A stretch of DNA of 64,000 bases from Gemmatimonadaceae bacterium (GCA_051859245.1 JBHYGA010000001.1:576001-640000), one strand, 5' to 3'; counted from the first letter of the stretch, positions 1 to 42,645 are shown. Translations and numbers: made by a program. Notes: generated from the sequence alone by a model not told the origin.

Positions 1-5
1 GTCTG

Positions 6-464
6 ATGTATCAGCGAATCCTGGTTCCGCTCGAACACTCGGCGTACGACGCCTGCATTCTGGAGCACGTGCGCCGATTGGCGAGCCTGTGCGGTTCCTC
101 CATGCTGCTTATTCACGTGGCGGATGGATGGGCGGCGCGCAACGTGAAGCAGTTGGCGTTGCGCGAATCAGAGGAGATTGCGCGCGACCGGGCCTATCTC
201 GAAGAAGCGTGCGCACAACTGCGCGCCGAAGGATTCGTGTGTGATGCATTGCTCGCGGCGGGAGATCCGGCCGCAGAGATCAGTGCGGCGGCCGAGCGCG
301 AGAAGTGTGACCTGATTGCCATGGCAACGCATGGTCATCGCGGATTGCAGGATCTGATCTATGGCACCACGGCGAACAGCGTGCGACATCGCACAATGGT
401 GCCGGTGCTGATGGTGCGCGGGCCCGTTGCCGCTGCGGCATCGGCCAAAAACACCGACGCGTAG
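6..464 (+). CDS. Universal stress protein (Usp family)
   Basis: YQRILVPLE N-terminus; DLIAMATHGHRGLQDLIYGTTANSV..VPVLMV C-terminal Usp motif. The ATG overlaps an upstream TGA (TGATG at 4-8). Confidence 0.92.
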   Translation: MYQRILVPLEHSAYDACILEHVRRLASLCGSSMLLIHVADGWAARNVKQLALRESEEIARDRAYLEEACAQLRAEGFVCDALLAAGDPAAEISAAAEREKCDLIAMATHGHRGLQDLIYGTTANSVRHRTMVPVLMVRGPVAAAASAKNTDA

Positions 465-468
465 TCAC

Positions 469-1215
469 ATGGCCGCATCCGGAAAAAAAGCGCCGTCTTC
501 AAAAAAGACGGTGACGGAAATCAAGTCGCCTGCCAAGGTCGCTATCGATCGTGTGAGCGAGCCGGTTGAGGACTATCTCAAGGCGATCTACGATCTTGCC
601 GGAAAATCGGGCACCGCGTCAACCAACGATGTGGCCGCGCGGCTCAACGTGGCGGCGGCCTCTGTCACGGGCATGATCCGACGATTGGCGTCGCAAGGGC
701 TGCTCGAGTACGAGCGCTATCGCGGCGTGAAGCTCAGCGAGACGGGTCGCGTGGTCGCGCTGCGAACGATCCGTCGTCATCGGGTGATTGAAACGTATCT
801 CACCGAAGTGCTGGGCTATCCGTGGGATCGTGTGCACGACGAAGCGGAGCGTCTTGAACACGCCGCCTCGGACGAGTTGGTCGATCGCATGGCGGCCTCG
901 CTCGGCAATCCCACCAGCGATCCGCACGGCGCCCCGATTCCAACGGCGGATGGGCAGATGGATGAGCGCCGGCACCAAACGCTGGCCGATCTCGACATCG
1001 GCACCAAAGCGCGCATGGTGCGTGTCAGCGACAAGAATCCGGGATTGCTGCGCTATCTGGCCGAAATCGATCTCACGCCGGGCACCGAAGTGCAGGTCCT
1101 GGCGCGCGCGCCGTTCGATGGACCGATCACGCTGCAAGTAGGTGACACCGAGCCCGTGGTGGGGCAGGGGCTCGCCGTACAGGTGCTGGTCGAGGAAGTA
1201 CAGGACGAGACGTGA
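469..1215 (+). CDS. mntR: DtxR/MntR-family metal-dependent transcriptional regulator with C-terminal FeoA/SH3-like domain
   Basis: EDYLKAIY, winged HTH, RRHRVIETYL, HDEAERLEH and DPHGAPIP motifs; ATG at 469 just after the usp stop. Confidence 0.9.
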   Translation: MAASGKKAPSSKKTVTEIKSPAKVAIDRVSEPVEDYLKAIYDLAGKSGTASTNDVAARLNVAAASVTGMIRRLASQGLLEYERYRGVKLSETGRVVALRTIRRHRVIETYLTEVLGYPWDRVHDEAERLEHAASDELVDRMAASLGNPTSDPHGAPIPTADGQMDERRHQTLADLDIGTKARMVRVSDKNPGLLRYLAEIDLTPGTEVQVLARAPFDGPITLQVGDTEPVVGQGLAVQVLVEEVQDET

Positions 1216-1223
1216 CGCGCCGG

Positions 1224-1247
1224 AACGAACCGCCACGGCGGTTCGTT
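1224..1247. repeat. Perfect 11-bp inverted repeat (hairpin or operator)
   Basis: aacgaaccgcc-ac-ggcggttcgtt between the mntR stop and the next start; no U-tract. Confidence 0.8.
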
Positions 1248-1258
1248 GCCACTGCAAC

Positions 1259-2161
1259 ATGAGACCGTTTCGTTTCGCGCCCGCACTCGTGGCGCTCGTC
1301 GTGCTCGCGCTTCCCGATGCGGCCCACGCCCAAACTGACACCGTAATCGGCACACCGGCGGCGCCCTCTATTGTGGGCCGCGTGGCGCCAACCGTGCGTG
1401 GGATCGCGATTGACGAACGCATCGCGGATGACCACGGCGTGGTGGTGGGCGATACGCTTCGCCTAGCCGCCGAGGCAGGAACACGCGGCGAGCTCGTGCG
1501 CGTCGACGCCATCGTGCGCCGCGCCGCGGATCCGTCGGAAGTGGCGCGCAGTGAATATCGTGTGCGCTTGCATCTTGATCAGTTGCAACGGCTCACGGGC
1601 AGTGAAGATCGGGTGGACCGCTTTGCGGTGGCGTTGCGCGACTCGGCGCAGTCCGGCGCCGTGGATAGCGCGCTGGCTCGCATTAATCATGTGGCATTCG
1701 GCTTTCGCGCTCATGCGTCTCGCGATGTCGCCGTCGAGAGTTCGCGCACCTTCCAAGTGGTGGATCGTTTTCACCGCGCGATTGGTGGCATCACGATTGT
1801 GGCCAGCGCGGTGTTCCTGCTCTGCATTTTGCTGCTCAAAGTTGAAGAGCGACGGCGCGCGATTGCCGCGCTGCGATTGGCGGGTCTGTCGCGCCGAACC
1901 GTAGCGCTGTCGGTGATCGCGGAGGCGGCAGTGATTTCGGTGGTGGGCAGTGTGGTTGGTGCGGGGCTTGGGTGGGTGGTCACGTTGGCCGTGAATGCGC
2001 ACTACCAGCGACTCTTTCGCACACCACTTACGTTTGCTGTGCTCACACCGGAGATCACGCTGTTTGCGATGACATTGTCGCTGCTCCTTGGCGTAGTCGC
2101 CGGTGCACTCGCCGCCTGGCGGTTGGTGCGCACACCACCGCTCGTCTTGCTCGGACGCTAA
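1259..2161 (+). CDS. FtsX/MacB-type ABC permease, C-terminal half, with N-terminal signal peptide
   Basis: Signal peptide ending AAHA/Q; 'GDTLRL' periplasmic motif; FtsX C-terminal TM domain (VEERRRAIAALRLAGLSRR..EA); lacks the usual N-terminal TM1 segment. Confidence 0.85.
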   Translation: MRPFRFAPALVALVVLALPDAAHAQTDTVIGTPAAPSIVGRVAPTVRGIAIDERIADDHGVVVGDTLRLAAEAGTRGELVRVDAIVRRAADPSEVARSEYRVRLHLDQLQRLTGSEDRVDRFAVALRDSAQSGAVDSALARINHVAFGFRAHASRDVAVESSRTFQVVDRFHRAIGGITIVASAVFLLCILLLKVEERRRAIAALRLAGLSRRTVALSVIAEAAVISVVGSVVGAGLGWVVTLAVNAHYQRLFRTPLTFAVLTPEITLFAMTLSLLLGVVAGALAAWRLVRTPPLVLLGR

Positions 2162-3390
2162 TGCGCACGACGCTTGCGTTCGCGTCGCTTTGGCGACACC
2201 CCATGCGCACGTTGCTTGCGATCTTCGGGCTCGCAATTGCCGCCGCGCTGCTGATCGATATGGTGATGCTGGCCACCGGCATGCGCGCCTCGTTCAAGTC
2301 GTTGCTCACGTCACGCGGCTACGAGTTGCGCGTCACACCGCGCGGCACACTCCCGTTTGATACCGAAGCAACCGTAGGCAACGCGGCGGCGCTTGTGGCA
2401 TCGCTTCGCGCACATCCGGATATCGAGCGCGTGAGTCCGTCCATTGGAACCACAGTGCAGATTGCGTCAACTCGCACTTCGCAGAGTGGCAGCGCGTTCG
2501 CGCTCGGCACGCAGCCGGACGTGCAGGGCGAATACAGCGTACTTACCGGACGCGCGCCAGCCGCGGCCGACACCACGCTGCGGGAAGTGATTGCGAACAC
2601 CGTGTTGCTCACACGAATGCAAGTGAAAGTTGGCGATACGATCAGTGTGAGTGTGGGGCGAAGCGCGCAGCTGCGACTCTCGCAGGTGGCCGAGCGCGCG
2701 GTGATTGTGGGTGAAGCGCGATTTCTGTACGTGCCGCCCGGCCTGCCGGCCATTTCTGCGCCGCTCACCGCCATTCAGTCGCTGCTCGGTAGCGCGGGAC
2801 GCGATCGCATATCGCTCGCCATGGCGTCGGTTCGCGCGGACAGTGCCGGCGCTGCCGCCACCAGCGCACGCACTGAAGCGGTCCGTACGTGGATTGAACA
2901 GACGCACGCGCGTGTGACGGCCATCTCTACGGAAACGGCCATTGTGCAAGTGGAAGAGCGCCTCGCGTACTTCCGCCAGCTCGCGCTGATTCTTGGTGCG
3001 TTAAGTCTGGTAATTGGTGTGCTCCTGGTGACCACGTTGGTCTCGCTGTCGGTGAACGAACGGCTCGGCGAACTCGCGGTGCTGCGTGCCATCGGAGTGG
3101 CTCGTGGAGGCATTCTTCATCAAATCATGCTCGAAGGACTCATGCTTGGTGTTGCCGGAATCACGATCGGACTTGGGCTTGGCTTGATCACTGCACAATG
3201 GCTCAACGCCATTTTGCGTGATTTTCCCGGCCTGCCGGCTGATCTCGATTTTTTTGTGTGGAGTCCTGAAGCGGCGTGGAAGTCGCTGGCCATGTTACTC
3301 GTGGCGGCTACGCTCGCCGGTGCGTGGCCCGCGTGGCGGGCATCACGTGTGCGTGTGGCGCAGGCGTTACGCGAAGAGGCAATCGGATGA
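2161..3390 (+). CDS. FtsX/MacB-type ABC transporter permease (full length)
   Basis: LAFASLWRHPMRTLL TM1; periplasmic domain; SVNERLGELAVLRAIG; PAWRASRV..ALREE; TAATG coupling at 2159-2163. Confidence 0.9.
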   Translation: MRTTLAFASLWRHPMRTLLAIFGLAIAAALLIDMVMLATGMRASFKSLLTSRGYELRVTPRGTLPFDTEATVGNAAALVASLRAHPDIERVSPSIGTTVQIASTRTSQSGSAFALGTQPDVQGEYSVLTGRAPAAADTTLREVIANTVLLTRMQVKVGDTISVSVGRSAQLRLSQVAERAVIVGEARFLYVPPGLPAISAPLTAIQSLLGSAGRDRISLAMASVRADSAGAAATSARTEAVRTWIEQTHARVTAISTETAIVQVEERLAYFRQLALILGALSLVIGVLLVTTLVSLSVNERLGELAVLRAIGVARGGILHQIMLEGLMLGVAGITIGLGLGLITAQWLNAILRDFPGLPADLDFFVWSPEAAWKSLAMLLVAATLAGAWPAWRASRVRVAQALREEAIG

Positions 3391-4094
3391 GCGAGACAAC
3401 GCCGTTGATTGAAGCACGAAATCTCGTGCGACGCTATCGCACCGGGGCCACAGATGTCGCGGCGCTCCGCGGCGTTTCTCTAACGATCATGCCGGGCGAG
3501 TTTGTGGCGATCGTTGGTGCAAGCGGCTCCGGCAAGAGCACCATGTTGCACTTGCTCGGCGCTGTTGATGCGCCCGACAGCGGGCAAGTGCTGCTGGAGG
3601 GACGCGACATCTCGCAACTTTCCGATGCCGAAGCAACGCGATTGCGCTTGCTCCGCATCGGTCTGGTGTTTCAGCGTTTCTACCTCATGCCAACGCTGTC
3701 GGCGCTTGAGAACGTGGAACTGCCAATGGCCGAGGCCGGAGCCAGCACCGCCGCGCGTCGCGAGCGTGCGAAATCACTGTTGACCTTTGTTGGAGTGGGT
3801 GAGCGCACGGACCACAGGCCTTCACAGCTGTCGGGCGGTGAACAGCAGCGTGTAGCGGTCGCGCGCGCGCTCGCCAACAAGCCCGCGCTCTTGCTGGCCG
3901 ATGAGCCAACCGGTGAACTGGATGCCGCAACCGGTGCCGCACTGATTGCACTGTTGCAGCAACTCAATCGTGATGGCCTCACGTGCGTGCTGGTCACGCA
4001 TGACGCGGCCCTCGCGCGATCGGCGCAGCGCGTGGTCACGATGCGCGATGGCCAGATCGTATCCGACGAACGCATTGCCGCATCCGTCACGTGA
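3387..4094 (+). CDS. ABC transporter ATP-binding protein (LolD/MacB-type)
   Basis: Walker A GASGSGKST, signature LSGGEQQRVA, Walker B LLADEPT, H-loop VTHD. Confidence 0.95.
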   Translation: MSETTPLIEARNLVRRYRTGATDVAALRGVSLTIMPGEFVAIVGASGSGKSTMLHLLGAVDAPDSGQVLLEGRDISQLSDAEATRLRLLRIGLVFQRFYLMPTLSALENVELPMAEAGASTAARRERAKSLLTFVGVGERTDHRPSQLSGGEQQRVAVARALANKPALLLADEPTGELDAATGAALIALLQQLNRDGLTCVLVTHDAALARSAQRVVTMRDGQIVSDERIAASVT

Positions 4095-5584
4095 TCTGGC
4101 GATTGGCGTGGCGTAATCTCTCGTTCCGCCCCTGGCGATCAGCGCTCTTGCTGCTCGGATACGGGCTGGGTGTGTCCGTGATGATCACGCTGCTGGCGGT
4201 CGGCGAAGCCATGCTGGTGCAGGCGCGTGAAGAAAAACTGGTGGGCGGCGGTGACATCACGGTGTTGCCCGATGGCATTGATATCGAAGTGCTCAAAACG
4301 GGCGGACTTGGCGGCATGTTCTTCTCAGTGCCGAACGCGCGTTTTGTGTACCGCCAGGTGCTCGCATCACCGCGCAATGCAGCGTTGGTGCGAGCCGTTG
4401 CCCCGCAGTTGGACAACAAACTGTTGTACCTCACCACGGCGAGTGGCGCAGAACTTCCGGTGCGAGCCACGGGTGAACTGCCCGACGCCACCGTGGCTGT
4501 TGGTGCCGGCCCATCGCTCCGCGACGGACGCTGGCGCAATGACGACGTCGACAATCGCTGGGCTGATCCGTCGCTCGCTGAACGGCGACACGATATCGAT
4601 CGTTTTCATTTGCCGCCCACCACGGTGTCGGAACGCGCGTCGTGGGGCGAATGGCATTACTTCAATGTGTTGTCGGACAATGCACAGCAGTGGGCGTTCA
4701 TTTCGTTCATCGTTGGTGGTGATGTACCAAACGGTGAATGGGGTGGGCAGTTGCTCGTCACGCTGCACGAGGTGGGCAAACCGGCGCGTCGGTTCACTGC
4801 GACCGCGCAGTCGAGCGACGTTCGCTTCTCCACCACCGATGCCGATCTTCGAATAGGCTCTGCGTCGGTCACGGTGCAACACGACGGTAGTTATCGTGTA
4901 CGTGGCACGGCACGCGAAGAGCAGCGCGGCACGCCGCTTACGCTGAATCTGAGCATCACGCCGAGCGCCAACGCCGAGTTCCCGGGAGCAGCGCTGTACA
5001 GCGGAGACTTTGCGTCAGGGTACGCGGTGCCCGCATTGCGCGCGAGCGCAACCGGTACGATCTGCGCCAGTAATGTGTGCGATGAATACCTGAACGCGCG
5101 GGCCTATCATGATCACAACTGGGGCGTGTGGCGCGGCGTGACGTGGGAATGGGGCTCTGGTCGCGCGGGCAATCTTGCGTTGTTGTACGGCCGGGTGCAG
5201 CCGCCCGACTCACTGCAGTCGAGCGCACCATTGTTTGTGTACGTCACGGATTCGCTTGGTTTCGTGTCGCTCTTTCGGCCAAGTGAGGTGCAGTACGAAG
5301 ACGGACGATCGGTCGTGGTTGGCAAACGCACCATTCGTGTGCCATCGCGAGGCCTGATGGAAGACATGCGCAACGGCGACACTTTGCGCGTGGAACTGCT
5401 TGTCGATGACGCCGTCGCGACCGACACGCGCGCGGGTCTCATTGATCGCGGAGAAGCCGCCGCGGCGCGCTTGCTCTCCAAGCCGTACTTCGTGCAGATG
5501 CAAGGTCGCATTCGCGTCACGATGCGTGTACGCGGGCAGCGATACGAAGCCGAGGGGACGGGCTTTTTCGAGACGTACCGGTAG
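4091..5584 (+). CDS. Fusion: MacB permease N-terminal segment plus AttH/CrtC-like (lipocalin-like) domain
   Basis: IWRLAWRNLSFRPWRSALLLLG TM1, then about 145 aa of MacB-like periplasmic sequence, then WGEWHYF and YHDHNWG..WEW motifs resembling AttH/CrtC. Confidence 0.7.
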   Translation: MIWRLAWRNLSFRPWRSALLLLGYGLGVSVMITLLAVGEAMLVQAREEKLVGGGDITVLPDGIDIEVLKTGGLGGMFFSVPNARFVYRQVLASPRNAALVRAVAPQLDNKLLYLTTASGAELPVRATGELPDATVAVGAGPSLRDGRWRNDDVDNRWADPSLAERRHDIDRFHLPPTTVSERASWGEWHYFNVLSDNAQQWAFISFIVGGDVPNGEWGGQLLVTLHEVGKPARRFTATAQSSDVRFSTTDADLRIGSASVTVQHDGSYRVRGTAREEQRGTPLTLNLSITPSANAEFPGAALYSGDFASGYAVPALRASATGTICASNVCDEYLNARAYHDHNWGVWRGVTWEWGSGRAGNLALLYGRVQPPDSLQSSAPLFVYVTDSLGFVSLFRPSEVQYEDGRSVVVGKRTIRVPSRGLMEDMRNGDTLRVELLVDDAVATDTRAGLIDRGEAAAARLLSKPYFVQMQGRIRVTMRVRGQRYEAEGTGFFETYR

Positions 5585-5661
5585 CCGCACAACGACCATT
5601 CACGGGTTTCGGCCTCTGGCAATGCCTCGTGGCACCGGCGGATTGCGGCTATTGTACAGGT

Positions 5662-8235
5662 ATGCCACCACGAGAGCCGAAAGGATCGCCCAAGCCATCC
5701 CGTAGCGCGTCAGACGGGCCTGCGCCTAAGGAGTCGTCGCCTAAGGCTTCGTCGCCCAAGGTGCCGTCGCCCAAGGCAACGTTGCCCAAGTCACCGGTGC
5801 CCAAACGAGCTGTGTCCGTGTCGTACGCACGGTTGAACCCGCCCGAGGAGGAAGTGAGGCGACTACGGGGCGGCACGCACGCTCGTCCGCACGCCCTGCT
5901 GGGCCCACACGCGGTTGAGTTTGATAAAGCCTCGGGTGTCGTGATCCGAGTGCTGTCCCACGGAGCGGTGGCGGGATGGATTGTCGATGCGAGCGGCGAA
6001 GAGCACACGTTGCAATCGAGCGGCGATGGCCTCATGCAGGTGTTTGTGCCGGGAGCCCGGGTGCACGATGCATACCGTGTGCGACTGCGCTTTGCCGACG
6101 GTACCGAAGTCACCGCCGATGACCCGTATCGATTCGCGCCCACACTCGGTGCGATGGATCTGCACCTGATCGGTGAGGGCACACATCATCGTTTGTGGGA
6201 AGCGCTGGGCGCACAGCTCAGGGAAATCGACGGTGTGACAGGTACCGCTTTCGCGGTGTGGGCCCCCAATGCACGCGGTGTGAGCGTGATTGGTGCGTTC
6301 AACGGATGGAGCGGTGCGGTGCATCCGATGCGCAAATTGAATGACGGCGGCATCTGGGAGTTGTTCATTCCCGGAGTGCGCGCGGGCGCAACGTACAAGT
6401 ACGAAGTGCGTCCCATGTCTGGGCCGTGGCGCGTGAAAACCGACCCGCTCGGTCAGTTCATGGAGCAACAGCCTGGCAACGCATCGATCGTCGTCGCGCA
6501 GGATCAATACACGTGGAACGACGGCGTCTGGCTGTCATCTCGCGCAAAACGTGATCCGGTACGCGAGCCCATGCTGGTGTACGAAGTGCATCTTGGATCC
6601 TGGCGTCGCGTCGCGGAAGAAAACAACCGATCACTCACGTATCGCGAAATTGCGCCGCTGCTGGCCGAGCATTGTGTAAAGCTGGGGTTCACACACATCG
6701 AGCTGATGCCGATTCAGGAGCATCCGTACGGCGGCTCGTGGGGCTACCAGGTGAGCGGTTACTACGCGCCGACCTCTCGCTACGGCACGCCGGATGATTT
6801 CAAGTTTTTTATCGATACCATGCACCAGGCGGGCATTGGTGTGTTGCTCGACTGGGTGCCAGCGCATTTTCCGAAGGACGATTTTGCGCTGCGCCGCTTT
6901 GACGGTACGGCTTGCTACGAACACGAAGATCCGCGTCTCGCAGAGCATCCGGAGTGGGGCACACTGATTTTCAACTACGGGCGCAACGAGGTACGCAACT
7001 TTCTCCTCGCGAATGTGCTCTACTGGGTGGAACAGTTTCACATCGACGGAATCCGTGTGGATGCCGTGGCGTCCATGCTTTACCTCGACTACGGGCGCGA
7101 AGCCGGCCAGTGGATGCGGAACCGTCTTGGTGGTCGCGAAAATCTTGACGCCGTGAGTTTCCTGAAAGAGTTGAATCACACGGTACGCACGTTGCACCCT
7201 GGTGTGGTGACCATCGCAGAAGAGAGTACCACGTGGCCTCGTGTCACGCACCCGATTCTCGAAGGCGGGCTCGGTTTCACGTTCAAGTGGAACATGGGGT
7301 GGATGCACGATACGCTGGACTACTTTCGCGTGGATCCGCTGTTCCGCCGAGGCGCGCACAACCAGCTCACGTTCGCCATGATGTACGAGTACAGCGAACG
7401 TTTTGTGAATCCGCTCTCACACGACGAAGTGGTGCACCTCAAGCGCTCGCTGCTTGAGAAGATGCCCGGTGACATGTGGCAGAAGTTCGCCAACCTGCGT
7501 GCGTTGATTGCGTATTCAGTGCTGCGTCCAGGCAAATCACTGTTTTTCATGGGCACGGAACTGGCGCCGCATCGAGAGTGGAATCACGACGCGAGTCTGG
7601 AGTGGCACTTGTTGCAGGATCCGCGCCGGGCCGGCCTGATGCAGTTCGTGGAACGCCTCGGTGCGCTGTACAAGGAAGACAGCAGCTTCTGGCGCCGCGA
7701 TCACGAGCCGTCTGGCTTTTCGTGGGTAGACGTTGGAGATCGTGAGCAGAGCATCGTGTCGTTCGTGCGACGCGACGGTGGGCGACACGCGGTTGTGGTG
7801 CTCAATCTCACGCCAGTTCCCCGTGAGCACTACCGCATTGGCGCGCCGGCCAAAGGTGCGTACGCGTACGCGTTGTCCAGCGACGACGAAGTTTTTGGTG
7901 GCAGCGGTTATGCGCGAGCAGATTCTGTACCGACCGAGGATCATCCGTATCATGGTTTCGAGCAATCAATGCTGCTGACGCTACCGCCGTTATCGGCGAT
8001 CGTGTTACAGCCGGAGCCCGGCACGGTTGAAGAATCTGCTCGCGTGAAGGCGGTAGAGTCGCTTCCAGCGGGGCTGGAGATTGCGGTACCAACCGCGCTG
8101 CTCGCGAGACGCGTCGGCAAAACGAAAAAGAAGGACGCCGAAAAGAAGGCGGATGCACCAAAGAAAAAGCCGTCAGCGAAAGCGGAAAAGTCGTCGCGCA
8201 AGCGCAAGCGCGATGACTCCGGAGACGCCTCGTGA
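5662..8235 (+). CDS. glgB: 1,4-alpha-glucan branching enzyme with low-complexity N- and C-terminal extensions
   Basis: YEVHLGSW, SWGYQ, DWVPAHF, DGIRVDAVASMLY, IAEEST and LSHDEVVH motifs. Confidence 0.97.
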   Translation: MPPREPKGSPKPSRSASDGPAPKESSPKASSPKVPSPKATLPKSPVPKRAVSVSYARLNPPEEEVRRLRGGTHARPHALLGPHAVEFDKASGVVIRVLSHGAVAGWIVDASGEEHTLQSSGDGLMQVFVPGARVHDAYRVRLRFADGTEVTADDPYRFAPTLGAMDLHLIGEGTHHRLWEALGAQLREIDGVTGTAFAVWAPNARGVSVIGAFNGWSGAVHPMRKLNDGGIWELFIPGVRAGATYKYEVRPMSGPWRVKTDPLGQFMEQQPGNASIVVAQDQYTWNDGVWLSSRAKRDPVREPMLVYEVHLGSWRRVAEENNRSLTYREIAPLLAEHCVKLGFTHIELMPIQEHPYGGSWGYQVSGYYAPTSRYGTPDDFKFFIDTMHQAGIGVLLDWVPAHFPKDDFALRRFDGTACYEHEDPRLAEHPEWGTLIFNYGRNEVRNFLLANVLYWVEQFHIDGIRVDAVASMLYLDYGREAGQWMRNRLGGRENLDAVSFLKELNHTVRTLHPGVVTIAEESTTWPRVTHPILEGGLGFTFKWNMGWMHDTLDYFRVDPLFRRGAHNQLTFAMMYEYSERFVNPLSHDEVVHLKRSLLEKMPGDMWQKFANLRALIAYSVLRPGKSLFFMGTELAPHREWNHDASLEWHLLQDPRRAGLMQFVERLGALYKEDSSFWRRDHEPSGFSWVDVGDREQSIVSFVRRDGGRHAVVVLNLTPVPREHYRIGAPAKGAYAYALSSDDEVFGGSGYARADSVPTEDHPYHGFEQSMLLTLPPLSAIVLQPEPGTVEESARVKAVESLPAGLEIAVPTALLARRVGKTKKKDAEKKADAPKKKPSAKAEKSSRKRKRDDSGDAS
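5725..5805 (+). repeat. 15-bp tandem repeat encoding PKxxx pentapeptides
   Basis: cctaaggagtcgtcg cctaaggcttcgtcg cccaaggtgccgtcg cccaaggcaacgttg cccaagtcaccggtg cccaaa. Confidence 0.85.
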
Positions 8236-9002
8236 GAGTCCGTGCTGCGCGCACGCTGAATACCGTGGTGTTTGGCGTCGTGACCGTTGCTGCGGCAGCA
8301 CTCTGCATTCGACTCGGCATCTGGCAGCTCGATCGTCTTGCTCAGCGGCGCGCGTACAATGACCAGGTCGCGTCGCGCTTTGACAACGGCGCAGAGCCGG
8401 TGCGCGATGTGATGGCGCGTGATACGGGTGACGCACGTTGGCGCCGCGTGACGGGTGTTGGTGTGGCGCAGTACGATCGGGAGGTGGTGCTCGCCGCACG
8501 CACGCGCGGCGGATCACCGGGCGTGTGGATCATCACGCCACTGCGCCTGCCCAACACTGACACTCTGGTGCCTCTCGTCCGCGGCTGGGTGTACTCACCC
8601 AATGGTCGCACAGTCGATCTGAGCAAATGGCGGGAAGCCGACACCATTACCATTGATGGGCGAGTGGACGCCTTTCAGCGTCCGGCGGCAGGTGCGCCAC
8701 GCTTGCAGTCTGATGATCGCGCCTTTCGCTGGCTTGAACGCGACACGCTGGCGGCCGAATGGAACGCGCCAGTGGCACCAATGCTCGTGTATCAGTTCGG
8801 CGATACGATCGGCGGCTATGAAGCCACCGGCGGCGTTACACCGGCACGGTTTCCGTTACCCACCATGGACGAAGGTCCGCATAAGAGTTACGCCGTGCAG
8901 TGGTTCGCATTTGCAACAGTGTTCGTGGTTGGCTACGGCGCGGTGCTGGTGACACGCCGCAAACGTGAGCAGCGTATCACCTCGACACCGTCAATCACGT
9001 AA
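8232..9002 (+). CDS. SURF1-family protein
   Basis: LGIWQLDR, VRGWV, H..YAVQWF motifs; two TM helices. Confidence 0.9.
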   Translation: MRVRAARTLNTVVFGVVTVAAAALCIRLGIWQLDRLAQRRAYNDQVASRFDNGAEPVRDVMARDTGDARWRRVTGVGVAQYDREVVLAARTRGGSPGVWIITPLRLPNTDTLVPLVRGWVYSPNGRTVDLSKWREADTITIDGRVDAFQRPAAGAPRLQSDDRAFRWLERDTLAAEWNAPVAPMLVYQFGDTIGGYEATGGVTPARFPLPTMDEGPHKSYAVQWFAFATVFVVGYGAVLVTRRKREQRITSTPSIT

Positions 9003-37732: not shown

Positions 37733-39466
37733 GTGATTCGACCACTGATCGTTGCGTGCCTGGTTGCGGCAGGTTGCGTTCACGCGCAGCCGGCGCCGTC
37801 TGTAGCATCGCCTTTGGGCGGTAGGCCCACGGGCGGTGCGCCCATGGGCCATGCGCCTACCGGCAGTGCGCCAAGCGGCAGTACGCCAAGCGGCAGTACG
37901 CCAAGCGGCAATGCGCCAAGCGGCAATGCGCCCACCGCGACGGCCGACCCGGCGCTCGTCGTGGTCGTCACGATCGACCAGCTCACGCCGCGGTATCTCG
38001 AGCGGTGGCGCACGCAGTTCACCGGCGGCCTGGCACGCCTGCTCAACGAAGGCGCGGTCTTCACCAACGCGTATCACGATCACGCCATCACGGAAACCGC
38101 GCCCGGGCACGCCGCGGTCCTGTCTGGACGATTCCCCTACAGCACGGGAATCGCCATGAACTACGCGGGCGTGAACACCGACGAGAGCCCGCTCATTGAT
38201 GCGAGTGACGCGGGCGCCAGCCCGTCGCGCTTTCGCGGCACGACGCTCGCCGACTGGATGACGTCGGCCAACGCGGCGTCCCGCGTGCTGTCGGTTTCGC
38301 GCAAGGATCGCGGTGCGATTCTGCCGGTTGGTCGGGCCAAACACTCGGTGTTCTGGTACGCGATGTCGAATGGGTCGTTCACCACAAGTTCGTGGTATGC
38401 CGATACGGTGCCGAGCTGGGTACGCGCGTTTAATGCCGAGCAGGCGGTGATGACGCGGTATGCGGGCCGGAAGTGGGAGCTGTTGCTGCCCGATTCGGCG
38501 TACGCCGAACCGGACACCGTGGTGAGCGAGAGTTTCGGGCAGGATTTCGTGTTCCCGTACGTCATGCCCTCCGACGCGCTGCGCGCGACGAACTTGCTGG
38601 TCGCGTTCCCGTTCATGGACGAGCTCACGCTCGAGTTTGCGTGGCGCGGCGTCAAGTCGATGCAACTCGGACAACGTGCCGCGCCCGATCTGCTGGCCGT
38701 CTCGCTGTCTACCACAGACGCGGTTGGGCATCGCTGGGGGCCTGAATCGCGCGAGATGCACGACCACATTCTGCGTGTGGATCGTGCGCTCGGGGCCTTC
38801 TTTGATTCGTTGCTGACCGTGGTTCCCGCCGAACGCCTGGTGATTGCCCTCACGAGTGATCACGGCGTGGCGCCAAGTCCGGATATGCGCTCGGGCGTGG
38901 TCAACAACGCGCGTGCGCAGCGGGTGATGCTGGATGACTTTCAGCCCGCGATCACCGCGTCTGCCGTACGCGCGTCACAGGCAAAGTTTCCGCTGGAAGC
39001 GCTCGACTTTGACGGTTTCACACTGACGGTAAATCGCAGCATCGTGAAAGGCCGTGAGCGTGATATTCGCAATATTGCCACAGCATTTGCCAAGGAAGCA
39101 CGCACGATGCCTGGCGTACTGCGAGTGGATCTCATTGACGATCTCGCGAAAGCCGATACGGTGAACGATGCGATTGCGCGCCGCTGGCTGCACATGTTCA
39201 AACCGGGAGGCGATGTCGTTGCCACGGTCACCTTGAACGAGTTCAATATCTTCGGACGCAGCAACGTGGCGACACACGGCAGTCCGCATGACTACGACGC
39301 GCATGTCCCGTTGATTTTCTGGGGCGCGCCGTTTGCAGCACGAAGCGACAACAGTTTCGTTCGCGTGGTGGATCTTGGCCCAACACTTGCCAACGTCCTC
39401 GGCGTACCGATCACCGAGCGTGTGGACGGACGCGTGCTCAGCGCTGCGTTGCGTAGTTTGCCCTAG
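37733..39466 (+). CDS. Alkaline phosphatase-superfamily protein (PafA type, Thr nucleophile)
   Basis: VTIDQL, TETAPGHA, SRKDRGAI, STTDAVGHRWGP, TSDHG, HGSPHDYDAHVPLIF. Confidence 0.9.
   Translation: MIRPLIVACLVAAGCVHAQPAPSVASPLGGRPTGGAPMGHAPTGSAPSGSTPSGSTPSGNAPSGNAPTATADPALVVVVTIDQLTPRYLERWRTQFTGGLARLLNEGAVFTNAYHDHAITETAPGHAAVLSGRFPYSTGIAMNYAGVNTDESPLIDASDAGASPSRFRGTTLADWMTSANAASRVLSVSRKDRGAILPVGRAKHSVFWYAMSNGSFTTSSWYADTVPSWVRAFNAEQAVMTRYAGRKWELLLPDSAYAEPDTVVSESFGQDFVFPYVMPSDALRATNLLVAFPFMDELTLEFAWRGVKSMQLGQRAAPDLLAVSLSTTDAVGHRWGPESREMHDHILRVDRALGAFFDSLLTVVPAERLVIALTSDHGVAPSPDMRSGVVNNARAQRVMLDDFQPAITASAVRASQAKFPLEALDFDGFTLTVNRSIVKGRERDIRNIATAFAKEARTMPGVLRVDLIDDLAKADTVNDAIARRWLHMFKPGGDVVATVTLNEFNIFGRSNVATHGSPHDYDAHVPLIFWGAPFAARSDNSFVRVVDLGPTLANVLGVPITERVDGRVLSAALRSLP
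37817..37936 (+). repeat. Eight 15-bp tandem units encoding GxxP(T/S/M)
   Basis: GGRPT GGAPM GHAPT GSAPS GSTPS GSTPS GNAPS GNAPT; core unit cggcaRtRcgccaag. Confidence 0.9.
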
Positions 39467-42400
39467 TCGCCCGCAACCGGCTGCGGCATGGCCCCGCGCA
39501 CATCGGGCGACCCGAGCACGAAGGAACGCAGCTTTGATGTGAGCGCGTGCATGATCACATACAAACACGGTACCACGAACAGCGTGAGCAATGTGGACAC
39601 GGAGAGTCCGCCCACCACTGCGATCGCGAGCGGACGCATGAGCTCCGAGCCGTTACCAATGCCAAGCGCGAGCGGTGCCGTGCCAACCAGAGAGGTGATC
39701 GTGGTCATCAGGATAGGGCGCATTCGCGCCGCTCCGGCTTCCACGACGGCTTCACCAACCGATGCTCCGGTTTCCTTGATGTGCGCGTTGACAAACTCGA
39801 CCAGCAGAATCGAGTTGTTCACCACAATACCGGCCAGCAGAATCATGCCCAGCAGCGCGGGGGCGCTGAAGGGTGTGCCGGTAATCTTCAGAATGCCCAC
39901 CACGCCCACGAGCGACATTGGCACGGCCGCCAAAATCACAAACGGATCGGACAGACTCTCGTACTGCACGGACAGCACAACAAAGACGAGAAAGATCGCG
40001 AGTCCAACCACCAGCAGCATCTGCGCATTGCTCTCTTCAATCGCTTCGGCTTCGCCGCCGATCAGCACACCGTATCCATCCGGGATATCGAGCTGCGCCA
40101 GGCGCGTGCGAATGGAATCGGTCACGGCGCCAACACTTGCGACGTTCGTGAGCACATCGCCGGTGAGCTGAATCTGCCGATTCTGATTCACGCGTCGGAT
40201 GCTCGACGGTCCGAGCGCGGGTCCAACAAATGCGACGTCGCGCAACTGTACCGGATCGCGACCGGCGCCCGCCGGAAACAGCGGCAAATCCGCCAGGTTG
40301 TTCACGCTCTGGAAGCGTCCGCGTGGAAAGAAGACGCGCACGTCATACTCAAAATTGCCCTCGGCGTATCGCGTTGCGACCGTGCCGTCGAGCGCCGTAC
40401 GAATCGTCTGACCAACCGTTGCGACGTCAAGCCCGAGTGTCCGCGCACGCTCGCGATCGAGTTCGATGGAAAGCAGCGGGTTCTGTTCGTCCGCTTGCAG
40501 GTCAAAGTTCTGCAGCCCCGGCGTGCCTTGCAACGTCCGCGCGACCGTGCGTCCGATCTGCTCGAGTGTTTGCAGTTCATCACCAACAATGGCAACCGAG
40601 ACCGCTTCGCCGCTGCTTGAGGTGCGCAGCCCGCGAATACGTGGCGGTCGTACGCCCACACGCGCACCGGCAAAGCCGCGTTCATCGATGCGCGTTTGCA
40701 ACTGCGTGACCCACTGTTCCGCGGTAATGGAGCGATCGCGCGCGCCATCGAGGCGAATGTCGAGACTCCCGCGTCCCGCGTTTGCGCTGTTTGACCCGCC
40801 GAACAGAAATCCGCCGGCCGTGGCAAACACACTCTGCACGTTCGGCATCGCCTGCACCATGGACTCAAGCTCGCGCGTGAGCCGGTCAGTTTGCGCCGGC
40901 GTGGCGCCCGCTGGCAGTCGTACGAATGCGCTCACCGTACCATCGTCCACCTGCGGAAGAAACTCCGACGGGATGCCGCGGCCCACGTAAATCGCGATTG
41001 CTGAAATACCGACTGCCGCACCAACCACCGTCCATTTCCAGCGTACCGCACCCGCCGCCGCCGAGCGATAGCCTTCAATCATGCGCTTGAGAAAACGATC
41101 GAATGCCACGAGCGGTCCGAAGCGTTCAAGTCCACTTGAGAACCGAACTTTGCCAAGCTGCGCGGCCAGCATGGGCACGAGTGTGAGCGCCAGCGGAAGC
41201 GACGCGAGAATGGCGAACGAAATGGTGAGAATGAGCTCACGGAAGATGAGCGCCGCCAGTCCGGTAATGAGCAGGAACGGTGCCACCGACGCGAGATTGG
41301 TGGTCGTGGACGCCACCACCGCGTTCGACACTTCGGCCGCGCCAACGTGCGCGCTTTCTTCGGAGTCGAGTCCATCCGAGACACGACGTCGATAGATGTT
41401 CTCCAACATCACGATCGAGTTGTCGAGCAACAAGCCGGTGCCGAGCGCAAGACCGCCGAGCGACATGATGTTGAGCGTCAGGTCACCAATGCCCATCATG
41501 ACGAACGTGGCCAGAACGGCCAGCGGAATGGAGACACCAATGATGAACGTCTTCCGGAACGAGCGCAGGAAAATCAGCACCACGAACATCGCGAGAATCG
41601 CACCCGTCACCGCCGCGCCCTGGACCGACGAGAGCGCATCGCGAATGAATCCCGACTGGTCGAACGTGACGTTGTAGTCGATATCGCGCGGGATGTAGGC
41701 ACTCTCACGCAGTCGACCGAGCAACTCCTGCACGCCGTCCACCACTTCTACCGTGTTGGCTTCCGGCTGCTTCTGAATACCAATGCGCACGGCCGGTGAG
41801 CCATTGAGTCGCGCCCAGAAACGCTGTTCCTGGCTCGTGTCGCGCACGATCGCCACATCGCGCAGTGGAATACGTGTACCACCGGCGCCCGTGAGCAGCA
41901 CGCCGCGAATCTCTTCTACACTTTCGAACTTGCCCGTGGTGCGACTGACCAGCTCCAGGTCAGGTCCCGACACACGTCCGCCAGCGATGTTCTGATTGTC
42001 ATTGCGCAGCGCCGACAGCACGCCGTTTACTGACAATCCGAATCCACGCAGGCGCTCCGGATCAAGCTCGATCTGCACTTCACGCACCAATCCACCCGAC
42101 ACATCAACTGACGCGACACCATCGACCGACAGCAGCTGCGGACGCAGTCGCTGCTCGACCCACTGGCGCAGCCCCACGAGATCGCGCTCCGTGCTGGAGA
42201 ACGCGACCTGATAGATCTGCATCTGCGACGGGTCCGACTTGTTGATTACCGGCGGATCGGCTTCGACGGGCAGTCGTGCGCGCACGCGCTCGACATTCTT
42301 GGCCGCGTCCTGCAGCGCAAAGTCAACGTTGGTGCCGTAGCGGAAATCGAGCGACACGTTCACGCGTCCCTCGGAAATATCCGTTTCCATGCGCTGCAGA

Positions 42401-42645
42401 TTTTCCGTCGTCGCGAGCGACGACTCCAGCACCTTGGCAATCGTTTCTTCGAGGACCACCGGTTCCACGCCCGCATTCGATACGCTCACGCGTACCTGCG
42501 GATACACGATTTTGGGCAGCAGATCGACCGGCAATCGACCCACGTACACGAGACCAAGCACCAGCAACGTGCTGGTCAGCATCACCGTGCCGATGGGCCG
42601 CAGAATGGACCAGCTGGCGATGCCGCGATGCTTCGGATCACTCAT
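39463..42645 (-). CDS. RND efflux permease (AcrB/AcrD/AcrF family)
   Basis: 1060 aa; LNIMSLGGLALGTGLLLDNSIVMLENI; GIVVNNSI; RMRPILMT. Confidence 0.96.
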   Translation of the reverse strand: MSDPKHRGIASWSILRPIGTVMLTSTLLVLGLVYVGRLPVDLLPKIVYPQVRVSVSNAGVEPVVLEETIAKVLESSLATTENLQRMETDISEGRVNVSLDFRYGTNVDFALQDAAKNVERVRARLPVEADPPVINKSDPSQMQIYQVAFSSTERDLVGLRQWVEQRLRPQLLSVDGVASVDVSGGLVREVQIELDPERLRGFGLSVNGVLSALRNDNQNIAGGRVSGPDLELVSRTTGKFESVEEIRGVLLTGAGGTRIPLRDVAIVRDTSQEQRFWARLNGSPAVRIGIQKQPEANTVEVVDGVQELLGRLRESAYIPRDIDYNVTFDQSGFIRDALSSVQGAAVTGAILAMFVVLIFLRSFRKTFIIGVSIPLAVLATFVMMGIGDLTLNIMSLGGLALGTGLLLDNSIVMLENIYRRRVSDGLDSEESAHVGAAEVSNAVVASTTTNLASVAPFLLITGLAALIFRELILTISFAILASLPLALTLVPMLAAQLGKVRFSSGLERFGPLVAFDRFLKRMIEGYRSAAAGAVRWKWTVVGAAVGISAIAIYVGRGIPSEFLPQVDDGTVSAFVRLPAGATPAQTDRLTRELESMVQAMPNVQSVFATAGGFLFGGSNSANAGRGSLDIRLDGARDRSITAEQWVTQLQTRIDERGFAGARVGVRPPRIRGLRTSSSGEAVSVAIVGDELQTLEQIGRTVARTLQGTPGLQNFDLQADEQNPLLSIELDRERARTLGLDVATVGQTIRTALDGTVATRYAEGNFEYDVRVFFPRGRFQSVNNLADLPLFPAGAGRDPVQLRDVAFVGPALGPSSIRRVNQNRQIQLTGDVLTNVASVGAVTDSIRTRLAQLDIPDGYGVLIGGEAEAIEESNAQMLLVVGLAIFLVFVVLSVQYESLSDPFVILAAVPMSLVGVVGILKITGTPFSAPALLGMILLAGIVVNNSILLVEFVNAHIKETGASVGEAVVEAGAARMRPILMTTITSLVGTAPLALGIGNGSELMRPLAIAVVGGLSVSTLLTLFVVPCLYVIMHALTSKLRSFVLGSPDVRGAMPQPVAGD

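Follow-up and report, generated by a model that had tools for sequence, protein, structure and literature searches.

The function of an ATP-binding cassette (ABC) transporter of type VII is set by the periplasmic partner that it moves, as illustrated by EnvC, LolA, MacA and TesA. In the case of LolCDE, a heterodimer of paralogous MacB-type permeases sits on a homodimeric ATPase and extracts a lipid-anchored substrate. The Att-type systems, in turn, have been associated with attachment to the host in Agrobacterium and with the handling of phagosomes in Mycobacterium tuberculosis and, to our knowledge, have had no mechanism assigned to them since the 1990s. Here we describe a four-gene operon from a Gemmatimonadaceae bacterium, lying in a 64,000-nucleotide stretch of DNA (GCA_051859245.1, JBHYGA010000001.1:576001-640000; hereafter the window), that is best read as a rearranged Att-type, YbbAP-TesA-like type VII ABC system. 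One of its two permease subunits is probably made of two polypeptides, and the periplasmic partner appears to be fused into this split permease.

AttEFGH of Agrobacterium tumefaciens, Rv0986-Rv0988 of M. tuberculosis and three loci of the phylum to which the window belongs (L110-L112, from genomes G035, G110 and G037) share a common set of parts: an FtsE/LolD-like ATPase, two FtsX-type permease modules and an AttH-family protein. The modules of these known systems are whole, whether separate, as in attF and attG, or fused into a permease of 840-888 amino acids (aa), and the AttH protein is separate and secreted. The two halves of Rv0987 are described as resembling attF and attG, and Rv0988 as resembling attH (PMC3982062); another source assigns Rv0987 two extracellular domains (PMC7761784). 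Within the phylum, genes matching the AttH family PF07143 occur in 5 of 121 genomes, each directly 3' of an FtsX-type permease gene, and an alignment of the five encoded proteins matches PDB 2ICH, ‘Putative AttH’, with an E value of 3.1e-79. Each of L110-L112 begins with the ATPase, followed by a double-FtsX permease of 840-888 aa and by an AttH-like protein of 379-389 aa whose N-terminus is signal-like. None of the three genomes is among the listed carriers of the split system in the samples searched. A further point of comparison is YbbAP-TesA, in which a MacB-fold transporter holds a periplasmic enzyme for hydrophobic substrates between two periplasmic domains; this lipid hydrolase has been proposed to take over hydrophobic molecules once they are extracted from the inner membrane (PMC12646458).

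The window encodes the Att-type set in a variant layout: one permease module is cut within its periplasmic domain, the gene order is permuted, and a divergent AttH-like domain is fused to the N-terminal piece of the cut module. The four open reading frames (ORFs), whose boundaries agree with those of a first-pass annotation made by a model from the sequence alone, encode the proteins that we call P0001 to P0004 (Table 1). Every junction is a translationally coupled overlap: TAATG at 2159-2163 between P0001 and P0002, ATGA at 3387-3390 between P0002 and P0003, and GTGA at 4091-4094 between P0003 and P0004. The operon contains only one ATPase gene.

Table 1. Genes of the operon and segments of their predicted products, in window coordinates (TM, transmembrane helix)
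Feature	Coordinates	Strand	Description
P0001, short permease	1259..2161	+	300 aa; signal-like leader, C-terminal half of MacB periplasmic domain, FtsX domain (TM2-TM4)
P0002, intact MacB-type permease	2161..3390	+	409 aa; TM1, full periplasmic domain, FtsX domain
P0003, ABC ATPase	3387..4094	+	235 aa; MacB/LolD/FtsE-like; Walker A, signature and Walker B intact (motifs read from sequence)
P0004, fusion protein	4091..5584	+	497 aa; TM1, N-terminal half of MacB periplasmic domain, AttH-like domain
P0001 leader	1259..1333	+	Residues 1-25, MRPFRFAPALVALVVLALPDAAHA/Q; AHA/Q a possible signal-peptidase site, read from sequence
P0001 periplasmic C-half	1397..1783	+	Residues 47-175; second part of Sabre and second Porter beta-alpha-beta motif, subdomains placed by alignment
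P0001 FtsX transmembrane domain	1784..2158	+	Residues 176-300; basic cytoplasmic loop VEERRRAIAALRLAGLSRR after first helix (read from sequence)
P0004 arginine-rich N-terminal segment and TM1	4091..4204	+	Residues 1-38; read from sequence and profile matches
P0004 periplasmic N-half	4205..4540	+	Residues 39-150; first Porter beta-alpha-beta motif and first Sabre part; ends ...LRDGRW
AttH/CrtC-like double-barrel domain (putative)	4568..5581	+	P0004 residues ~160-497, ~340 aa; conserved columns, remote homology

The case for a split permease is built on two incomplete copies of one fold that complete each other. P0002 serves as the reference, matching positions 1-196 of the Pfam MacB_PCD profile (E 5.4e-10, 40.3 bits) as well as FtsX (E 1e-15, 58.3 bits). 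In P0004 only positions 1-115 of MacB_PCD are matched, by residues 17-153 (E 6.9e-6; 26.9 bits, where the cut-off is 27). The P0001 match covers positions 121-206 with residues 47-141, below the cut-off (E 0.013, 16.3 bits), and P0001 also matches FtsX with residues 175-294 (E 9.5e-18, 64.8 bits). The two halves meet without overlap at positions 115 and 121 of the profile. Orthologues from family- to class-level relatives repeat the pattern: MacB_PCD is matched in 9 of 11 for P0004, each match ending at or before position 117, and in 3 of 11 for P0001, each match starting at or after position 119, while all 11 P0001 orthologues match FtsX. Pfam therefore agrees with the first-pass annotation, which had described the gene at 2161-3390 as intact, that at 4091-5584 as holding only the first part of the permease, and that at 1259-2161 as lacking TM1 and carrying the FtsX domain.

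Profile-to-profile comparison with hhalign, using 32-sequence alignments, places P0002 residues 142-398 on P0001 residues 48-293 (E 1.9e-19) and P0002 residues 1-101 on P0004 residues 1-113 (E 6.8e-4, with a probability of only 27%); BLASTP relates P0002 to P0001 at 27% identity (E 4e-9). By both profile hidden Markov model scan and hhalign, the halves align contiguously and without overlap to P0002 and to MacB_PCD, as had been proposed. Their sizes add up in keeping with this, with some 112 periplasmic residues in P0004 and some 130 in P0001 against about 236 in P0002. The P0002 family matches Acinetobacter baumannii MacB over its full length (5gko_A 279-668, E 5.8e-16), and through this alignment the break maps near residues 399-410 of 5gko_A. 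For comparison, the Sabre subdomain of Aggregatibacter actinomycetemcomitans MacB comprises residues 347-465, and in solved MacB structures the Porter subdomain consists of one beta-alpha-beta motif on either side of Sabre (PMC5985334). The break would then fall inside Sabre, a placement that is approximate given that the two MacB numberings differ slightly, and each polypeptide would keep exactly one Porter motif. Since each holds only one of the two, assembly into one subunit is strongly suggested, and we consider it probable from these alignments that P0001 and P0004 reconstitute a single split permease.

The membrane portions point the same way. The transmembrane domain of P0001 matches that of MacB (5gko_A 527-669, E 2.6e-11), and the profile matches of the two permeases take in the transmembrane domains of solved MacB, YtrF, LolF and FtsX structures. 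The N-terminal segment of P0004 has profile matches to TM1 of a MacB-type permease of Streptococcus pneumoniae (5xu1_M 5-48, E 0.0076) and to TM1 of Escherichia coli MacB (5nik_J 259-316, E 0.041). The predicted topology is consistent with the distribution of charge, in that an arginine-rich N-terminus precedes TM1 in P0004 and a strongly basic loop follows the first FtsX helix in P0001. By analogy with MacB, we take this loop, VEERRRAIAALRLAGLSRR, to be the coupling helix.

The N-terminus of P0001 is not an ordinary TM1, in line with the first-pass annotation, being short, variable, fast-evolving and less hydrophobic than the TM1 of P0002 or P0004. In the window protein the leader divides into MRPFRF, APALVALVVLAL and PDAAHA-Q. 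Across 62 orthologues, the segment preceding the invariant RTIAIDERLA-type motif varies in both sequence and length (median 27 aa, with some of 14-17 aa). The most hydrophobic 19 residues of this segment score a median of 1.61 in hydropathy, and 33 of 64 orthologues reach the threshold of 1.6 taken for a helix, a count that leans towards the helix reading because the 45-residue segment scanned can take in untranslated sequence. The corresponding values for TM1 are 2.45 in P0002, where 66 of 66 sequences reach 1.6, and 2.51 in P0004, where 90 of 90 do. The ratio of nonsynonymous to synonymous substitution rates (dN/dS) is 0.21-0.40 in the leader against 0.01-0.09 in the mature periplasmic part of P0001, and the leader evolves 4 to 16 times faster than the rest. 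Judged by these sequence properties, the leader behaves as a signal peptide and not as the conserved TM1 of the superfamily.

Both halves are under strong purifying selection. The N-half of P0004 is the most conserved alignment that we made, with 69% mean column identity and 33 invariant columns among 32 orthologues. In comparison with its closest relative, P0001 has a dN/dS of 0.013 in the periplasmic half, 0.025 in the membrane part and 0.21 in the leader; for P0004 it is 0.067 for TM1, 0.034 for the N-half, which ranges over 0.03-0.11, and 0.064 for the C-terminal domain. With a synonymous rate (dS) of about 1, these values are approximate.

The arrangement is also widespread, rather than unique to this assembly. 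Clusters at 90% hold more than 3,549 members of the P0004 family, which has 550 representatives at 50%, and 582 contig stretches encode a relative. All 71 loci with at least 3300 nucleotides upstream of the P0004 gene carry the four genes in the same order on one strand, another 20 being too short to judge, and this order is kept in class-level relatives from other families, at 37-43% identity. Of 301 genomes surveyed in the phylum, 111 match the P0004 family profile, distributed among families as 38/69, 51/125, 1/1, 2/23, 15/47 and 3/4, with six further families having none. A large majority of the matches that this survey lists span profile positions 1-489, so the fusion itself is conserved. 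Among 41 related genomes, exactly the same 24 contain P0001 and P0004 (of genomes flagged as unpublished, G021 is counted in both the 41- and the 301-genome tallies, G088 in the latter). The best 80 loci comprise 79 with labels beginning Gemmatimonad and one, L075, from a bin labelled Candidatus Kuenenia stuttgartiensis; the L075 protein is 62% identical to that of the window, like those of Gemmatimonadaceae loci, and its label is probably a binning error rather than a sign of gene transfer.

Searches for an unsplit form returned none among the best 150 of the 550 P0004 representatives and none among 34 P0001 relatives longer than 525 aa, although searches for long proteins are weak evidence of absence. 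The long outliers among the former are frameshifted read-throughs or have the same architecture with insertions. The top two of the latter are merged gene calls, one joining P0001 to the start of P0002 and the other a regulator to P0001; the others are FtsX-family permeases of ~800-940 aa, mostly ~850 aa and most with FtsX and MacB_PCD matches in Pfam, which share 23-31% identity with P0001 where the alignment spans a substantial part of the query. Three candidates for an unsplit or fused form (P0241, P0277 and P0278) were rejected as merged or frameshifted gene calls. The search above 870 aa gave a single P0004 relative, with the same architecture plus a C-terminal PD40 extension. P0311, a 995-aa protein from one metagenomic contig, is 37% identical to P0004 over residues 1-511 and continues for ~480 further residues with PD40 beta-propeller repeats.

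What follows the break in P0004 is a domain that the first-pass annotation had called simply another domain. Its presence is borne out, and remote homology now suggests that it belongs to the AttH/CrtC superfamily; the connection with Att-type operons had not been drawn. The window's C-terminal domain has no Pfam or NCBIfam match, and PF07143 is absent from P0004 and its 42 homologues at E values up to 1. Near-invariant columns in these homologues, whose alignment includes one row (P0132) that looks frameshifted, are W185, E187, W188, Y190 and F191, making up a W185-x-E-W-x-Y-F191 motif, followed by G310, Y311, Y339-H-D-H-N-W-G345, W352 and W354. Language-model neighbours of the domain are CrtC, Svf1 and Diels-Alderase lipocalin-like clusters (0.95-0.96), and Pfam finds Tocopherol_cycl in eight of the 42 homologues (best E 3.3e-5), DUF2804 and AsqO_C in three each and DA_N in one. 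Aligned by hhalign with the five canonical AttH-like proteins of the phylum, the P0004 family matches over 208 columns (E 7.7e-5, probability 62%), in a register that sets YHDHNWG on sWMDkEFg, VTWEWG on VGWDWF and GFFET on GYVEL. The domain thus appears to be a remote member of the AttH/CrtC superfamily, not PF07143 itself.

The comparison with CrtC offers a possible clue to function. The essential residues of the Rubrivivax gelatinosus enzyme include His239, Trp241, Tyr266 and Asp268 (PMC4717167), and the Y339-H-D341 of P0004 resembles its Tyr266-x-Asp268. Y339-x-D341 is conserved in at least 90% of the 42 homologues and lines up with the W-M-D of the AttH-like proteins. P0004 differs in having no Pfam CrtC match and in a domain predicted to be periplasmic and tethered to a transporter. 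By remote homology, CrtC, kievitone hydratase and the archaeal hydroxylated glycerol dialkyl glycerol tetraether (hydroxy-GDGT) synthase Hgs would belong to the same superfamily as the P0004 domain. AttH-like hydratases are described in a preprint as adding water to the double bonds of isoprenoids, those in archaeal membrane lipids among them (bioRxiv 10.1101/2025.10.20.683597). Other leads were set aside: the P0004 profile found only a 25-phosphosteroid lyase among PDB sequences, weakly (E 0.56), and tblastn of the C-terminal domain against plasmids returned four hypothetical proteins of Sulfitobacter and no attH. In genome G086, the locus L102 (1100-2140) encodes a stand-alone paralogue of 346 aa, 25% identical, with no permease piece and no obvious hydrophobic leader in its first 60 residues, so that the domain family exists alone too.

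How the pieces correspond to a canonical Att-type permease can be gauged from the double permeases of L110-L112. The P0001 profile matches the C-part of the first half with independent E values of 6e-10 to 2.5e-8 and the second half with 2.6e-4 to 2.5e-3; at each of the three loci the second half is matched along its whole length by the P0002 profile, which matches the first half as well. These matches lend moderate support to P0001 deriving from the first permease half and P0002 corresponding to the second. Canonically the order is ATPase, N-part, C-part, second permease and AttH, and in the window it is permease C-part, second permease, ATPase and then permease N-part fused to AttH. We conjecture that one block move, carrying the C-part and the second permease upstream, could convert the former into the latter and leave the N-part beside AttH.

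A working model can be proposed on these grounds, in which assembly, leader cleavage, stoichiometry and substrate, as well as the path of rearrangement, are what we infer. Its topology draws on homology, the positive-inside pattern and published MacB structures. P0004 would insert with its N-terminus in the cytoplasm, contributing TM1 together with the first Porter beta-alpha-beta motif and the initial stretch of Sabre. P0001, exported by its own leader, would supply the rest of Sabre, the second Porter motif, TM2-TM4 and the loop that engages the ATPase, such that the two rebuild one four-helix permease half. The rebuilt half would most likely pair with P0002 on a dimer of P0003, much as LolC and LolE pair on LolD. 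With the break inside Sabre, the tip of the periplasmic domain would bear a free C-terminus, from which the AttH/CrtC-like barrel would hang; in essence, a partner that is usually recruited as a separate secreted protein would be attached to the periplasmic domain as it moves. On the model of YbbAP-TesA, stalk helices set in motion by ATP may draw a hydrophobic molecule out of the inner membrane's outer leaflet and pass it to the barrel for binding, transfer or hydration; the molecule is probably a lipid of isoprenoid type. This lipid-extraction function is a tentative proposal, somewhat less likely to be right than wrong.

Several observations weigh against the reassembled permease and its Att-type assignment. 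Taken alone, the N-half homology of P0004 is weak, resting at 26.9 bits and 27% probability with no significant BLASTP match to P0002, and hhalign of this half against the N-terminus of the canonical double permease gave 21 columns at E 0.074, which is not significant. The MacB_PCD match of P0001 is below cut-off and is reproduced in only 3 of 11 orthologues, and the hydropathy of its leader region in half of the orthologues is compatible with an uncleaved anchor. The likeness to AttH is remote, as the 62% probability conveys, and the genome of the window has no PF07143 match. A counterpart of the catalytic His239-x-Trp241 pair of CrtC was not located in P0004, for which no alignment to CrtC itself was made. 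No flanking gene is conserved across families to give a clue to the substrate, and the genomes counted, being related, are not independent samples. Lastly, evolutionary-rate covariation, calculated as partial correlations over 68 loci with the ATPase as background, does not discriminate between partners: the P0004 N-half scores 0.56 with the periplasmic half of P0001, and 0.57 and 0.60 with the two halves of P0002. At 0.70, the AttH-like domain and the periplasmic half of P0001 are the best-correlated pair, which is a hint only.

The lack of a covariation signal favouring the two halves would suit a different arrangement, in which P0001 is self-sufficient, an uncleaved leader replaces TM1, and P0004 is a separate anchored AttH-like accessory whose N-terminus is a mere anchor or docking stub. 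The 33 leader regions that reach helix hydropathy could be read this way too, and FtsX proper, which is similar in size to P0001, has a small periplasmic domain without Sabre (PMC5985334). Such a P0001 would, however, have only one of the two Porter beta-alpha-beta motifs, and the 14-17 residues that precede the conserved periplasmic motif in some orthologues are too few for a membrane helix and stalk. Moreover, the leader is fast-evolving and unalignable, whereas the TM1 of P0004 is highly conserved, and an N-half that ranks among the most conserved parts of the operon is not what would be expected of a mere anchor. We regard this arrangement as unlikely.

A separate question is whether a real split permease need be paired with P0002 at all. 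MacB and FtsX act as homodimers, and a P0002 homodimer and a homodimer of the P0001-P0004 assembly might share the single ATPase encoded by the operon, or P0002 might have some other partner. The four genes are nonetheless translationally coupled and together in every one of the 71 loci, and their canonical counterparts in the phylum are double permeases in a single chain, and so obligate pseudo-heterodimers, to whose first half P0001 is closer and whose second half P0002 matches along its full length. Separate complexes are, in our estimation, quite improbable. Scarcely credible is the suggestion that the split reflects decay or artefact, be it a frameshifted or rearranged gene on its way to being lost or an error of assembly. 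Frameshifted and merged gene calls of this operon do exist in public data (P0277, P0241 and P0132), but the same split, order and lengths recur in independent assemblies from several families of the class, the start/stop overlaps are intact, dN/dS stays at 0.01-0.11 on both halves, and the leader is a gained feature, contrary to decay. The first-pass annotation had likewise favoured an evolved split over decay. A permease rebuilt from P0001 and P0004 and paired with P0002 remains the arrangement that we prefer.

With respect to class, P0001 and P0002 have the FtsX-type C-terminal transmembrane domain of type VII ABC transporters, and P0003 belongs to the MacB/LolD/FtsE group of ATPases. P0003 matches ABC_tran in Pfam (E 7e-34, 117.8 bits), and its best NCBIfam models are the MacB nucleotide-binding domain (246.5 bits) and LolD (243.6 bits), followed by YbbA and FtsE, all below their equivalog cut-offs. 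The MacB periplasmic domain is recognisable at sequence level in P0002 (40.3 bits); in the split subunit its profile is covered by two pieces, on two proteins, that each fall below cut-off (26.9 and 16.3 bits). The operon is not LolCDE, MacB proper or FtsEX. For LolCDE, the LolC/E model TIGR02212 has a cut-off of 362.45 bits and gives 56.5 and 44, and the LolD model TIGR02211 gives 243.6 against 307.75; LolC and LolE are, besides, unsplit, and LolA is a separate protein of another fold. MacB proper does not fit, as the ATPase gene is separate and the permeases score 21.9-24.3 bits with NF007826 against 966, nor does FtsEX, for which the best FtsX model reaches 32.6 bits against 250. As for YbbAP-TesA, TesA is a GDSL esterase held non-covalently and not an AttH-like barrel, YbbP is one unsplit protein of 10 helices, and the NCBIfam YbbP model scores 15.7 bits on P0002 against a cut-off of 999. 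Elsewhere in the genome there is a separate 294-aa open frame with an FtsX domain.

In a literature search that fell short of most subscription journals, we found no paper linking AttH with FtsX, MacB or type VII ABC transporters, and no description of a split permease of the P0001/P0004 kind; the only overlap was an M. tuberculosis review naming attH beside Rv0987 and Rv0988. While type VII ABC transporters and Att systems are already known, a split permease with a fused AttH-like barrel is thus a layout not found in the literature searched. Transporter subunits divided within a folded extracytoplasmic domain are rare, and this would be one, in which one fragment had to gain an export signal of its own; it is of interest for both the assembly and the evolution of membrane proteins. 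The covalent fusion of the AttH-like barrel to a permease piece also predicts which proteins touch, and roughly where. More speculatively, the fusion may act as a ‘Rosetta stone’, indicating that AttH-family barrels are dedicated periplasmic partners of Att/YbbP-type type VII ABC transporters, docking at Sabre, and that these form a widespread class pulling isoprenoid-type lipids from the inner membrane to a hydratase-like or carrier barrel. We hold this reading to be doubtful; were it true, it would open a first way into the mechanism of the att and Rv0986-0988 systems, which have long gone unexplained, and would show that a transporter's periplasmic domain can be divided in the middle of its fold and put together again from two polypeptides exported separately.

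The surroundings of the operon are varied. On its 5' side lie genes for a universal stress protein and a DtxR-type regulator with a FeoA domain, and on its 3' side glgB and a SURF1-family gene. A near-perfect inverted repeat at 1222-1250, GGAACGAACCGC ... GCGGTTCGTTGCC, occupies the space between the stop of the regulator gene (1213-1215) and the P0001 start at 1259, in a span (1200-1265) with a predicted RNA minimum free energy of -25.8 kcal/mol. The repeat is recognisable in close relatives (L013 and, partly, L014 and L019) and is lost in more distant ones; it may serve as an attenuator or an operator, or as a terminator that has no T-run. Rfam has no match in 1-9000, and a scan for promoters and terminators yielded nothing useful.

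A metal-homeostasis neighbourhood is recurrent. A DtxR/MntR-type regulator with a FeoA domain, at 427-1215 in the window, lies upstream of the operon in 53 of the 92 loci examined (L013-L104), many of which are too short to judge. In a neighbouring family the upstream gene is a ZIP transporter (L093) or the genes are those of Nramp and DtxR (L094), with an opposite-strand 3-hydroxyacyl-CoA dehydrogenase gene between the metal genes and the operon at both loci. Further afield, a Pfam survey of 20 larger ORFs of 9005-64000 found ordinary genes, none related to isoprenoids or lipids, among them UDP-glucose dehydrogenase, an epimerase, EamA, MgtE, photolyase, a LuxR-type STAND regulator, carbonic anhydrase and TerC; an AcrB-family pump is encoded at 39466-42645.

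Other lineages add genes of their own. YceI-family proteins bind polyisoprenoids, and in one clade, which includes a bin labelled Gemmatimonas phototrophica, a gene for a YceI-like secreted protein lies directly upstream of P0001 at nine loci (L057, at 2621-3190, and L087, L067, L051, L054, L074, L068, L079 and L060 in the same position) and as a fragment at a tenth, L081. The window has no such gene, and the YceI-like neighbour is a weak, lineage-specific hint. Where the window has only the GTGA overlap between its ATPase and fusion genes, L029 (5399-6001) and 15 further loci (L071, L035, L077, L070, L050, L058, L038, L039, L042, L062, L069, L056, L046, L086 and L053) have an ORF of ~200 aa, in which no Pfam family was found in the four copies scanned (L029, L035, L070 and L038). 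At L099, the same gap holds a 524-aa Exo_endo_phos ORF instead.

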